From a virus (taxonomy: Duplodnaviria; Heunggongvirae; Uroviricota; Caudoviricetes): DNA of 64,000 bases. Below the pieces are notes generated by a model that worked only from the letters and a program-made list of their open reading frames with translations, ran no database searches and was not told the origin of the DNA. Within the stretch, counting starts at the first letter, position 1. The number at the start of each line of letters is the position of its first letter. The DNA is taken from the IMG/VR virus record IMGVR_UViG_2939521961_000018; one strand, written 5' to 3'. The position numbers and the translations under genes are program-made. Positions 58,694 through 63,218 of this stretch are shown in pieces.

Positions 58694-59179
58694 CTACCTG
58701 ATATTACTGCTACTGTTGCATGTTACCGTGTTTCCAAATCCTGAATTGCAGTTTGTATATGTGTCAACGCGTGTTGGGTAAGGTTGAGTTATAACAGGCT
58801 GGCGCGCTTTTTGCTCGATCGCTTGCATTGTGTTTACAGCCTGATAATTCAATAAAGCCTGCTGGAATGCTTGGCTTTGTGCTATTTGTTGGGCTTGTTC
58901 TTGGCTTTGTAATTGAACATAAAGATTCTGAAGCTCAAGTCTTGCCTGTGCGTCACTTATCTTGCCTTCATCGACACCTTTCCCGAGCATCTTTGCAGCA
59001 AGGACATACAGCTTAGGTGTTGGTGCTGATGCCATGCGTGAGTCGTTCTTCACACTGGCATCAAGGCAATTAGCCATATCGCTAAGCTTTTGATAGCGTT
59101 GTTCGCAACTTGCTTGATAGTCACTTACTTTTGCGCATCCAACCAGCAGAAACGGGATAATTAACAGTGATTTTTTCAT
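58694..59179 (-). CDS. Lipoprotein moron in the immI-equivalent region
   Basis: Signal peptide plus lipobox MKKSLLIIPFLLVGCAKV; Gln-rich coiled-coil C-terminus; opposite strand to the virion genes. Confidence 0.5.
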   Translation of the reverse strand: MKKSLLIIPFLLVGCAKVSDYQASCEQRYQKLSDMANCLDASVKNDSRMASAPTPKLYVLAAKMLGKGVDEGKISDAQARLELQNLYVQLQSQEQAQQIAQSQAFQQALLNYQAVNTMQAIEQKARQPVITQPYPTRVDTYTNCNSGFGNTVTCNSSSNIR

Positions 59180-59249
59180 ATGGTTAACTCTCCTTAGTTT
59201 TTCACAGGATATCATGAAGGCAATGCCATTTTAGCCGGAAACTAGATTT

Positions 59250-59516
59250 CTATGTTTCCTTTTTATTATTGCTATACATGGTCTTAAGCGTTTCAAAAAC
59301 CATTTTCTTAACCATATCAGATTGTTGTTCTGCCATACGCTCTGCATCATCAATGTAAACGGATGCAGAGCTTTGTTTAGCCAACGATTCTTCAATCGCT
59401 GCAATTATCTCTGAGTTCAGCGACCTGTTATTCATCTTCGCGCGCTGTTTAATTTTCGCGTGGAGTTCATGCGGAAGTCTCAAGTGAAACTGCGCCTCGT
59501 CGTATTTGCTGTACAT
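59250..59516 (-). CDS. mnt: Mnt-like ribbon-helix-helix repressor
   Basis: RSLNSEIIAAIEESLAK...DDAERMAEQQSDMVKKMVFETLK aligns with recalled P22 Mnt; start at MYSKYDEAQF. Confidence 0.65.
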   Translation of the reverse strand: MYSKYDEAQFHLRLPHELHAKIKQRAKMNNRSLNSEIIAAIEESLAKQSSASVYIDDAERMAEQQSDMVKKMVFETLKTMYSNNKKET

Positions 59517-59637
59517 CCTTGATGCCTCACCAGTTGGGTGGAATGGCATCGTAACCTACTGGATAAATACTCAATAGTACCATTTCGGTATGCAATCACA
59601 TCATGGTTGCATCATATCATTCTTCTGGAGCAATGAA

Positions 59638-61761
59638 ATGTCAGATATCACCGCAAATGTTGTGGTCAGCATGCCTTCGCAACTCTTCACTATGTCTCGC
59701 TCTTTTAAAGCCGTAGCCAATGGAAAAATTTATATCGGTAAAATTGACACTGACCCGGTAAATCCAGAAAACCAGATTCAGGTTTATGTGGAAAACGAAG
59801 ACGGTTCTCACGTTCCTGTTTCGCAACCAATCATCATTAACGCTGCTGGTTACCCTGTATATAACGGACAGATTGCCAAGTTCGTAACTGTGCAAGGCCA
59901 TTCTATGGCTGTTTATGATGCATACGGTGCGCAGCAGTTCTATTTTCCGAATGTGCTAAAGTATGATCCAGATCAGTTTAAGGGCAATCTCCTGAGCGAA
60001 GATCACTCACTTGGCGACTCTCTAGTCATGCATAACCCACAGTTTGTCGATAGCACATCGACCATTCTCTCAAAAAAGCTAACTATCGACCTGAGGACGC
60101 TTACAGACTACGGGTTTGCTGAGGGAAACACCGGTGCTCAGAACAAAGCTGCATTTCAGAAGGCTATTGATGATGCTACGTTGCCAACTGAGATTGTTAT
60201 ACCAGAGGGGGCGTTCATTGTTGACCCTGGTATTACGATTAAGAATACTGTCACCATGATACGAGGTGCTGGCGCATATCAGTCCAGAATTTTCTCTACG
60301 GGTACAGCGGCACCGATAATCACGCAACAAGATGGGGTAATTACGTTCTGCGAGTTCAGGGACTTTGGTCTTGACGGAAATGGCTACGCAGCTAACGGCA
60401 TCAGTCTTACTGAAGCCAACCACATTAAAATAGAAAATATTGACGTGGTTAATACTAATAACAACGCAATATTAGTTAACGGTTACTCCATTGACATCAT
60501 TGGGTGCCGGTTGTTTCAAAACGCCGGTAACGGTATTAATGTTGGTGGTTACTGCAATAATATTAATATAATCAACAGCCGTATCTATGGTAACGGAGCC
60601 GGTGGAGTTTTACTTACGCCAGCTTACGCTGAGGGCGGTATGAGCGTCAGAGTTAATGGCAACAATATAGAGCAAAATAAGTTCTACGGACTTTTGGCTT
60701 ACGGGGTTAAAGGCCTTAACCTTGATGCTAACTATTGGGAACGCAACGGTGAGATTGGTTACCCGTATAGTGTACCTGAGTCTATTACAGTACGTGCGGA
60801 TATCCACCTTATCGCGAACAATTTTACATTAATTCCTGACCTTTCAAAAATTAATGATACCGTATCTATTCGCGGGAATCAGCAGACCGCGATTGGCTAC
60901 GCCAGCGCGCTACCTAACCAAGACGGATTTATTTTCACGAACTATGCGAAAAACCTGACGATTGAAAATAATCAGTTATTAGACGCATCGAAAGTGAATA
61001 ATTTATTAGCAATGTACCACAATAATCTTTCGTCCAAAGTTACTGACAGGCTATATCTTGCCAACAACACAGTGAACTCCATCGGATACGTTGGTAGTTA
61101 TGACCCGGCGACACAAAACCCTGACACTGCGCATTTAATAGATATTGCGAACAGAGAGTTAACTGCTAACTATCTTGATCGAAATATGTTGCTCTGGACT
61201 GCGGCATCTGGAACTACAGGAACATTGATAAAAACTCAAAACATCTATGCTGGTAATTATTCATTCTTAGTTACGACAGGAGATAGAGTTTGGGGACGAA
61301 CGATAGACCTCAACAAATCACCAGAACTAAAAGGGAAATTTGTATGGTTTGGTGCGTGGGTCAATGACCAGGGATCAGCGTCAAAACTTATGTTTATAAT
61401 TAATGGTGCAGGACAAACAGACTCTACAGCACCTTTAGCTGGTAATGGGAAATGGAGCTATGTTAGTTGTGGTGTGTATATATACGAAACTGATACAGCT
61501 ATAAATGTTGGTATAAGAAATTATGGTTCAGGAAATGTACTCATAAACTCACCTTCTCTATGTGCATATGGAATGCCATCAAACGCGTTGCAAGTTGAAA
61601 AAACAACATTTTATCTTTCGTCAGTACCTACATCCGGTTTCTGGGATATAGGTGAGCGTGTTATCAATAGCGCACCTGCTTCAGGACAACCAAAGGCATG
61701 GACATGCAATATTCCAGGTGGGCCAGGAACCTATTCTTTCTTATCAGAGGGAAACTTTTAA
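59638..61761 (+). CDS. Tailspike: P22/Sf6-type head-binding N-terminus with a divergent beta-helix receptor-binding domain
   Basis: N-terminal ~115 aa [60 protein letters not shown] as in Sf6/P22 tailspikes; remainder not recognisably the Sf6 endorhamnosidase. Confidence 0.8.
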
Positions 61762-61831
61762 AAGACCTATGTATTGAAATGATTACTTTGATCTGGTATG
61801 TTTAAAAAAAATCAGTAAAACACATTTTGAT

Positions 61832-62974
61832 ATGGAAAGAAAAACAAATAAGTTAGACTCTATTCAAGTCCTTAGAGGGATCGCGGTACTTCTAGTCATT
61901 GCGTTTCACTTTAGAGTATATTTAAATGGAGTGTATGCCCAAAAGGACTTGGGCGACATTCTTTTTGGTATAGGTGAGGTTGGTGTTGATATATTCTTTG
62001 TTATAAGTGGATTTATCATTACTTATTCTTCAATGAATAAGGCAAAAAACCGGCCAATGGTGTTTGCTGCTAAGCGTTTTTTTAGGTTGTACCCTGTTTA
62101 CTTTATAATCCTTACTCTGGCTATATACCTCAACTATGAGGCAATATATACATCATCACAAATAATAAAGAGCTACTTGCTCATACCAATTGACTATAAT
62201 TTTATAGGGCCATGGTCAGGTTATAGTATAATAATACCTGCATGGACACTAACGTATGAAATTTGGTTCTATGTGGTTTTCTTTTTTTCATTATGCATCA
62301 GCCATAAATATAGAACTGCGATCGCATCATTTCTTCTCATCATTATTTGCGTTCTTGGTCAACTGTACTTTCACGGAGATGTTTTTCTAAATCCTATCGC
62401 GCAACCGCCATCTGGTGATGGAATTATTCGTAATCTGGTATTTGTATCAAATCCAATAATATATGACTTTATTTTGGGGATGATTATTGCAGAGGCCTAC
62501 ATTAGGCTACCTTCTAGACTTATAAATAAAATGCCTGTTGTTCAATTTCTTAATATTACATTAGCGATTGCCTTGCTTTTTTTATGTCTAGGGTTAAGGA
62601 ATGGACCTGGAATTGTAGCATGGGGGGCTTATTCATTTATGATTATAGCCCCAATAGTCCTTATTTCTAAGTGTAGGGATGTATATAGAAATAAAATTCT
62701 AACGTATGTTGGTGAAATATCCTATTCACTTTACATTAATCATATGGTTGTATACAGTCTTGCTGTTTTATATCTCAAACCGTACGGGGTATTGGATAGT
62801 AAAGGATTTGGTGTTTTTCTAGCTATGATTTGCGCTACTTTTATTATATCAATCATATCTTATAACTTTATTGAAAAACCATCAGTATCCATAGGGCATG
62901 CCATCGCTCGTAGAATGCAAAAAAAATCAGATGTATCTTCAATTAAAACTGAATCCGTTAGAGAAGCACCTTGA
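61832..62974 (+). CDS. Acyltransferase-3 family membrane protein, O-antigen O-acetyltransferase-like
   Basis: 380 aa, about 10 TM segments, N-terminal LRGIAVLLVIAFHF, very AT-rich; directly downstream of the tailspike as oac is in Sf6. Confidence 0.7.
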   Translation: MERKTNKLDSIQVLRGIAVLLVIAFHFRVYLNGVYAQKDLGDILFGIGEVGVDIFFVISGFIITYSSMNKAKNRPMVFAAKRFFRLYPVYFIILTLAIYLNYEAIYTSSQIIKSYLLIPIDYNFIGPWSGYSIIIPAWTLTYEIWFYVVFFFSLCISHKYRTAIASFLLIIICVLGQLYFHGDVFLNPIAQPPSGDGIIRNLVFVSNPIIYDFILGMIIAEAYIRLPSRLINKMPVVQFLNITLAIALLFLCLGLRNGPGIVAWGAYSFMIIAPIVLISKCRDVYRNKILTYVGEISYSLYINHMVVYSLAVLYLKPYGVLDSKGFGVFLAMICATFIISIISYNFIEKPSVSIGHAIARRMQKKSDVSSIKTESVREAP

Positions 62975-63218
62975 TAAATAGAGCAATAGCCAGATAGCAC
63001 CTAACCGATTTCGTACTCATAGGGTTGTCACTTTACCAAACTGAGAGGAAATACACTGATAACAGTTGGTTATGAAGTACTGGGTGAGGTGGATGTGAAT
63101 GGTATTTTGATGCATTTCATTAACCTGTACGCCTAAGAAAGCAACCCTGAAATCTAAGACACACAAGCTTTGCACTGGATTGCAAGGCTTTGTGCACTTC
63201 GATAGTGGTTAAGGTGGT

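Follow-up and report, generated by a model that had tools for sequence, protein, structure and literature searches.

A tailspike with an O26-restricted receptor-binding domain and an adjacent AT-rich acyltransferase gene form a putative receptor-recognition and receptor-modification module in a P22-like prophage of Escherichia coli

Tailspike and acyltransferase genes in described phages and in the O26 prophage

In the P22-like phage Sf6, which has an IntS-type integrase, inserts at a tRNA-Arg gene and meets the O-antigen of S. flexneri Y on its host, the tailspike gene (gene 14) is followed by oac (gene 15), an O-antigen modifier of the acyltransferase-3 (AT3) type that lies between tailspike and int and has a mapped promoter and terminator. 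An AT3 gene occupies the same slot between tailspike and integrase in Sf101 (oacB), Salmonella phage SI8 and vB_EcoP-611R6 (611R6), and the tailspike-adjacent slot in TL-2011b, a Uetakevirus-type phage of enterohaemorrhagic Escherichia coli (EHEC) O103:H25. Here, we describe a comparable pair of genes in a 64,000-nucleotide (nt) stretch of tailed-phage DNA (IMG/VR record IMGVR_UViG_2939521961_000018; hereafter the window), in which a tailspike with a receptor-binding domain (RBD) found in O26 genomes only is followed by the gene of a 380-residue AT3 membrane protein. The open reading frame (ORF) scan and the composition profile confirmed both genes at the positions given in Table 1. We put the probability at roughly 60% that the whole chain of our reading holds, namely that the two genes form an Sf6-type module for receptor recognition and receptor modification, that its RBD is restricted to O26 and that the AT3 protein most likely O-acetylates the O26 O-antigen.

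The region 59638-62974 matches E. coli O26:H11 strain 11368 (NC_013361.1) and ~100 further complete genomes with 100% identity. In the RefSeq record of 11368, P22-type DNA-ejection genes are followed by a lipoprotein-like ORF, an Arc/Mnt repressor gene, the tailspike, the acyltransferase, intS, tRNA-Arg and yfdC, and the part further upstream contains capsid, portal, terminase and lysis genes as well as nin, replication and immunity genes, all of P22 type and with few pseudogenes among them. The module thus resides in a largely intact P22-like (Lederbergvirus-type) prophage at argW (tRNA-Arg), the site also used by Sf6. As in Sf6, a gene encoding an AT3 domain alone (AT3-only) lies between tailspike and int, and the N-terminal domains of the two tailspikes are ~90% identical. 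The O26 prophage differs from Sf6 in that its RBD is unrelated beyond a weak beta-helix similarity, its AT3 shares no more than 28% identity over 120 residues with Oac, and the host O-antigen is O26 rather than that of S. flexneri Y; moreover, its AT3 gene is co-oriented with the tailspike, unlike oac of Sf6 and oacB of Sf101, which lie on the opposite strand. In 611R6, which is also found at argW, the AT3 gene is co-oriented as well. Identity to the O26 protein is 21-26% for OacB, 26% for the AT3 of 611R6 and 32% for that of SI8, and the tailspike RBDs of these phages differ from that of the O26 prophage. TL-2011b has the same layout as the O26 prophage, i.e. a tailspike, a 70-nt gap and a co-oriented AT3 gene, but its virion anchor is PF18668 and its AT3 is only 25% identical.

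The tailspike has 707 residues; although an ORF from 59590 would be longer, the start is set at 59638 by RefSeq and by homology to Sf6. The initial annotation had proposed that a conserved particle-binding N-terminal domain is joined to an RBD foreign to the Sf6 endorhamnosidase, and both parts of this proposal are borne out. Specifically, Pfam assigns residues 1-113 to Head_binding (PF09008; E=2e-67) and detects a Beta_helix match (E=1e-8), residues 1-117 are ~90% identical to Sf6 gp14 and are followed by a gapped alignment of ~25% identity up to ~residue 311, and no alignment to the Sf6 tailspike was found beyond this point. Likewise, the Sf6 and P22 tailspike structures in the Protein Data Bank (PDB) align with residues 1-115 only (E<=1e-45). 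An AlphaFold2 model of the RBD (pLDDT 83) is rich in strands and shows a beta-helix followed by a beta-sandwich, so that the protein has both the N-terminal head-binding domain and the right-handed parallel beta-helix RBD of a P22-like (gp9-type) tailspike. The best Foldseek matches to this model were tailspikes and depolymerases (CBA120 TSP4, K2-2 TSP, Sf6, HK620), all with a TM score of 0.41 or less; because these matches are generic, neither a specificity nor an active site can be transferred to the RBD. Four acidic residues (D169, E228, E251 and D271 in RBD numbering) are invariant in the RBD alignment. The closest tailspike in the phage collection is the tail protein of Escherichia phage N7, which is 65% identical overall and nearly identical over residues 1-180; its RBD is only ~60% identical, and N7 has no acyltransferase downstream.

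At the DNA level, blastn similarity to Sf6, Sf101, N7 and 611R6 stops at 59978-59982 and resumes at 63150 (611R6), 63157 (Sf101), 63183 (N7) and 63226 (Sf6). These edges delimit a foreign segment of ~3.2 kb that holds the RBD and the acyltransferase. The acyltransferase gene was said by the initial annotation to be markedly AT-rich, and with a GC content of 0.344, compared with 0.422 for the RBD and 0.478 for positions 1-59000 of the window, it is. An AT-rich gene beside tailspike and integrase of a temperate phage, in the slot that holds oac in Sf6 and oacB in Sf101, is what a lysogenic-conversion gene (moron) looks like, and the gene order, the GC content and the slot all support that the pair is a module of the lysogenic-conversion type.

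The receptor-binding domain and the acyltransferase in O26 genomes

We surveyed 5426 complete E. coli genomes with megablast-level matching for the RBD and the AT3 gene. O26 wzx/wzy were present in 109 genomes, the AT3 gene in 105 (>=99.8% identical) and RBD DNA in 105, at 142 places. Among the carriers listed, all are O26. The nesting of the 105 carriers within the 109 O26 genomes follows from these counts together with the overlap of the sampled lists, in which carrier and O26 accessions coincide at 31 entries compared with ~32 expected if carriers are nested within O26. This restriction supports the earlier proposal that the RBD has an O-antigen specificity of its own. Serotype conversion, which the initial annotation had also invoked, fits the type of module; in its strict serological sense it is not established, because O26 strains with and without the module both carry O26 wzx/wzy.

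The 105 genomes hold 37 extra RBD copies, which lie in second or third prophages without this AT3. In many O26 genomes, the same RBD (~94% amino acid and 98% nt identity, the latter spanning window positions 60096-61727; contigs L011/L012, 7001-10121) is found on an 873-residue tail protein anchored by PF18668 (Tail_spike_N). This protein belongs to a second, Uetakevirus-like prophage at the guaA/ppx locus, which therefore shares the RBD and differs by its anchor and by the lack of an AT3; downstream of its tailspike, we observed nothing but an orphan, opposite-strand gtrA unaccompanied by gtrB, gtrC or an AT3 gene. The tailspike half of our finding was already described in silico: Pas et al. 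2023 catalogued the receptor-binding proteins of an RM10386 Lederbergvirus prophage and of an E2865 Uetakevirus prophage as putatively O26-specific and as a case of horizontal gene transfer between genera (PMC10408124). The RM10386 protein is the same tailspike, the RM10386 region being 100% identical to the window. A text search of that study, which deals with receptor-binding proteins only, found no discussion of the downstream acyltransferase (PMC10408124), and our literature searches found no paper on this acyltransferase gene.

The acyltransferase matches Pfam Acyl_transf_3 (PF01757) over residues 9-344 of 380 (E=9e-29; 100.9 bits compared with a gathering cut-off of 31) and PHROG 3333, annotated as 'O-acetyltransferase' (E=3e-103). 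It is a single-domain protein without a fused SGNH domain and is therefore of the AT3-only architecture; a crude Kyte-Doolittle scan detected at least seven strongly hydrophobic segments, the AT3 type having about 10 transmembrane helices. Functional AT3 proteins share R/K-X10-H in the first transmembrane helix, V-X-X-F-F-X-(I/V/L)-S-G-(F/W/Y), and RXXR in the first cytoplasmic loop (PMC9558356). All three motifs are present, as R15-X10-H26, V52DIFFVISGF61 and R82FFR85, and across 24 homologues R15, H26, V52, F55, F56, S59, G60, F61 and R82 are invariant and R85 nearly so. The ratio of nonsynonymous to synonymous substitution rates (dN/dS) is 0.11, 0.09 and 0.08 against homologues that are 87%, 81% and 56% identical, respectively, demonstrating that the gene is under purifying selection (dN/dS ~0.1). 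Of the 58 carrier genomes listed, 57 have an unsplit copy of the gene, among them genomes with degraded prophages. The remaining copy is that of strain SJ2D, where a one-base length change splits the gene. We also note that in strain 7_14_47A an IS3-family element lies inside the tailspike gene at ~codon 96 and the AT3 gene is intact.

NCBIfam holds no model that matches the tailspike or the acyltransferase, and hence no equivalog for the latter; PDB sequence searches with the acyltransferase, both as a single sequence and as a 24-sequence profile, gave no match. The public names of its homologues are generic.

Related tailspike-acyltransferase loci

The order of a tailspike followed by an AT3 gene recurs. 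We compared 19 distinct loci whose AT3 shares 44% identity or more with the O26 protein. At 14 of them a co-oriented tailspike, or a remnant of one, ends 60-130 nt upstream of the AT3 gene; the gap is wider at two, and no tailspike is present at three. The sample consists of viral contigs, so that the count is biased toward phage contexts. Across the related tailspike-AT3 loci, the RBDs fall into two families and the anchors into at least two types. In Morganella morganii (L008, 5898-9107; L009, 5967-9107), genes for identical AT3 proteins follow 99%-identical RBDs of 537 residues in two prophage types, and these RBDs sit on two unrelated anchors, PF18668 and the P22 head-binding domain. As judged from the sequences, an RBD has here clearly moved as one with the AT3 that follows it. 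The metagenomic contig L014 is collinear with the window at 72% nt identity through RBD, gap and AT3, and in a Limnobaculum prophage a 57%-identical RBD is paired with a 56%-identical AT3, which is nearer to the Morganella AT3 than to the O26 AT3. An obligate RBD-AT3 cassette was considered and dropped, strict co-divergence having been tested and not found (Spearman rho 0.30). Our comparisons suggest instead that RBD and AT3 stay paired over short time scales and exchange partners over long ones.

Other occupants of the slot were found downstream of related RBDs. A Citrobacter sedlakii prophage with a siphovirus-like tail module (L119, 5001-10012, at yfdC/argW) carries a 79%-identical O26-type RBD, and gtrC-like, gtrB and gtrA genes follow its tailspike in place of the AT3. 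The slot is filled by an opposite-strand AT3 gene in a different E. coli prophage with a related RBD, and in a lytic-looking phage with a related RBD it is empty. In Cronobacter turicensis (L005-L007, 8001-12167), a 50%-identical AT3 lies beside gtrA-gtrB-gtrC on a chromosomal island without phage structural genes; in one of these loci (L006), gtrA and gtrB look truncated. Escherichia sp. E1V33 (L004/L025) has an 81%-identical AT3 together with a second AT3 gene at guaA-ppx, also without phage structural genes. This locus is where O26 strains carry the Uetakevirus-like prophage, and it looks like the retained remnant of a decayed prophage.

Acceptor, expression and alternative explanations

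Our working hypothesis is that the gp9-type N-terminal domain docks the tailspike to the virion and that the swapped-in beta-helix RBD would recognise, and probably cleave, the O26 O-antigen. The horizontally acquired AT3 gene would be expressed in the lysogen, probably from its own promoter; by analogy with Sf6 Oac and the general AT3 model, its product would pass acetyl groups of a cytoplasmic donor through the inner membrane and, on the periplasmic side, use them to O-acetylate one of the sugars in the O26 repeat unit. The altered receptor for tailspikes with this RBD may then reduce superinfection and re-adsorption and change the antigenic surface. That the O-antigen is the substrate of the AT3 is suggested by the context of the gene.

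What is known of O26 chemistry is consistent with this hypothesis. The O26 cluster from galF to gnd contains rfbBDAC, wzx, wzy, two glycosyltransferase genes, fnl genes and wbuC, and no acetyltransferase gene was found in it. For native O26 strain GTC 14605, matrix-assisted laser desorption/ionisation (MALDI) data in a 2026 preprint indicate partial O-acetylation on an N-acetylhexosamine (bioRxiv 10.64898/2026.03.20.713141), which makes this sugar our candidate acceptor, and the O26-cluster glycan made in a heterologous host was assigned as a plain, non-acetylated trisaccharide repeat unit (PMC12093740). The cluster content and both glycan reports fit an accessory acetyltransferase encoded outside the cluster.

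Several observations weigh against our reading. This AT3 gene is no more than a candidate source of the acetylation reported for GTC 14605, and WecH, which O-acetylates N-acetylglucosamine of the enterobacterial common antigen, could be an alternative source of the O26 O-acetyl group. The acyltransferase shares 28% identity over 120 residues with Oac (E=4e-5) and 21-26% over partial alignments with OacB; this argues for a common superfamily and falls short of orthology, so that no substrate can be assigned from it. Among annotated phage homologues, the nearest carry the name 'exopolysaccharide production protein ExoZ', which we take to be an automatic label, yet one that provides no evidence for an O-antigen. 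Co-divergence of RBD and AT3 is only partial over non-independent pairs, and AT3s that are 55-62% identical follow unrelated RBDs. The 37 extra RBD copies reside in AT3-positive genomes, and the AT3 accordingly appears not to have kept them out. Finally, a promoter and terminator scan of the region found no more sites than in shuffled sequences, and the AT3 start has no obvious Shine-Dalgarno sequence.

Some of these points would be expected if the AT3 acted on another envelope glycan, be it the enterobacterial common antigen, colanic acid or another exopolysaccharide, peptidoglycan or periplasmic glucans, with the gene lying next to the tailspike merely as the usual moron slot. AT3-only enzymes indeed have many acceptors (PMC9558356), and the ExoZ-type label, the minimal similarity to Oac and OacB and the pairing of similar AT3s with unrelated RBDs would all accord with such an acceptor. 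The initial annotation had named clustering with peptidoglycan or exopolysaccharide enzymes rather than with O-antigen acetylases as the decisive comparison, and this comparison went only part of the way: a profile of the clade matched the O-antigen-type AT3s D3 orf28 and TL-2011b AT3 and did not match E. coli WecH or OpgC, in a small panel without peptidoglycan or exopolysaccharide enzymes and without OacD, OafA, OafB, OatA and ExoZ. Sequence distance cannot decide the substrate, because characterised AT3s are equally distant (~20-28% identical) from one another and from the O26 protein. However, related phages fill the slot with bona fide O-antigen modifiers (oac, oacB, gtrABC), a homologue adjoins gtrABC, and the gene is confined to a single serogroup. 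Together with the clade profile, these observations lead us to regard an acceptor other than the O26 O-antigen as unlikely.

Next, we considered when the gene would be expressed and in which direction it would affect the receptor. The tailspike-acyltransferase gap is 70 nt and holds the promoter-like element of Table 1, in which TTGAAA and TATGTT are separated by 17 nt, with TG before the -10 box. Contig L014 keeps the same element (TTGAAA, 17 nt, TATGGT with TG) despite a synonymous divergence (dS) of 0.7 in the adjoining coding sequence, and TATAAT-like boxes are present in the equivalent gap of most related cassettes. The argument for a promoter rests on this conservation and recurrence, as the scan itself did no better than chance, and we suggest that in the lysogen a promoter of its own probably drives the acyltransferase gene. 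The scan found no terminator-like site between tailspike and acyltransferase, so that read-through from the late operon is also possible. It could therefore be argued that the AT3 acts mainly during lytic growth on the late tailspike transcript, or that acetylation creates or tunes the receptor such that the tailspike prefers acetylated O26. The co-orientation with the late tailspike gene, which together with the missing terminator sets the locus apart from the opposite-strand oac and oacB, and the coexistence of prophages with the same RBD in AT3-positive strains speak for this possibility. By contrast, phage-encoded AT3 and Gtr systems that have been characterised, such as Sf6 Oac and BTP1 OafB, block the cognate tailspike (PMC9558356), promoter-like boxes lie directly upstream of the AT3 in most cassettes, and the AT3 is intact where the tailspike has been destroyed. 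We find a receptor-creating or mainly lytic role improbable. If acetylation instead masks the receptor, as in our working hypothesis, the extra RBD copies alongside the AT3 would be explicable by partial acetylation, earlier arrival or recombination between resident prophages.

The O26 restriction might also reflect clonal hitch-hiking from an O26:H11 ancestor, in which case the O26 antigen would have no bearing on either tailspike or AT3. A few studies supplied most of the carriers, which are closely related O26 genomes of EHEC or atypical enteropathogenic E. coli with >=99.8% identical modules. Against this stands FDN-24, an O26 strain from chicken with a 4.8-Mb genome: compared with 11368, its chromosomal flank differs by 1.9%, and its tailspike and AT3 differ by only 0.18% (99.82% identity). 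In FDN-24 the prophage is degraded, with only Arc, tailspike, AT3 and IntS kept and joined to lambda-like remnants. TW01221, which carries O26 wzx/wzy and shares several flank proteins with FDN-24 (yfdC, fadL, yfdF, fadI, fadJ and yfcZ), has an empty argW site, where tRNA-Arg is directly followed by dsdC. The divergent flank with a near-identical module and the empty site point to more than clonal inheritance. Moreover, the same RBD occurs on a second, unrelated prophage type in O26 genomes only, and RBD or AT3 were detected at megablast level in 0 of about 5300 non-O26 genomes. For these reasons, we give clonal hitch-hiking little weight. That the AT3 is a functionless passenger and O26 O-acetylation stems from WecH or another prophage AT3 is the least credible explanation, since the weak promoter match, the only partial acetylation reported and the single split copy in SJ2D stand against a dN/dS of ~0.1 relative to homologues 56-87% identical, the retention of all catalytic motifs and unsplit copies even in degraded prophages.

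Table 1 Features of the module and its right-hand flank in the window
Feature	Position	Strand	Evidence
Tailspike N-terminal head-binding domain, residues 1 to ~115, common to P22-like phages	59638..59982	+	Pfam PF09008, Sf6 identity
Tailspike RBD, right-handed beta-helix and C-terminal beta-sandwich, O26 genomes only	59983..61761	+	Pfam, AlphaFold2, genome survey
Promoter-like element, probable own promoter of the acyltransferase	61774..61802	+	Consensus scan, conservation in L014
AT3-only integral-membrane O-acyltransferase, 380 residues, AT-rich moron; putative O26 O-antigen O-acetyltransferase	61832..62974	+	Pfam PF01757, PHROG 3333
Spacer containing the right-hand mosaic junction	62975..63218		blastn junctions
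Prophage integrase IntS, 3' part (gene leaves the window), next to tRNA-Arg (argW) in the source genome	63219..64000	-	Pfam Phage_integrase and Phage_int_M; RefSeq NC_013361.1

Two genes upstream of the tailspike complete the picture of the neighbourhood. At 58694-59215 (minus strand), an ORF of 173 residues (161 in RefSeq; GC ~0.42) starts with a lipoprotein-type signal peptide and lipobox (...LLVGC) and is flanked by the last DNA-ejection gene and the Arc/Mnt repressor gene, roughly at the position of P22 sieA. It matched no Pfam or NCBIfam family and only PHROG 6067, whose function is not annotated; it may be a moron lipoprotein, for instance one for superinfection exclusion. At 59250-59549 (minus strand), a regulator of 99 residues combines an Arc-like ribbon-helix-helix (residues 18-60) with an Mnt C-terminal domain (residues 68-92). 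Between this regulator and the tailspike there is neither arc nor ant, in contrast to phages N7 and 611R6, indicating that the immI region is reduced.

The mechanism that we propose is the standard Sf6-type arrangement and its conceptual novelty is small; the AT3 gene itself is uncharacterised. A broader possibility, for which we see the odds as somewhat unfavourable and which we put forward tentatively, is that RBD and AT3 constitute a mobile cassette that recognises and modifies its receptor, has its own promoter and hops between P22 head-binding and PF18668 anchors across Enterobacterales, and that the O26 copy is the gene behind the partial O-acetylation of O26. O26 is the leading non-O157 EHEC serogroup. 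If the cassette reading is true, the O26 surface would vary with prophage content, which would bear on serodiagnostics, on glycoconjugate vaccines and on detection by phages or tailspikes. If the AT3 does acetylate O26, the antigen of ~96% of sequenced O26 strains would differ from the textbook repeat unit, as would recombinant O26 glycans made from the rfb cluster only differ from the native antigen, and the resistance of O26 strains to phages with this RBD would be explained.

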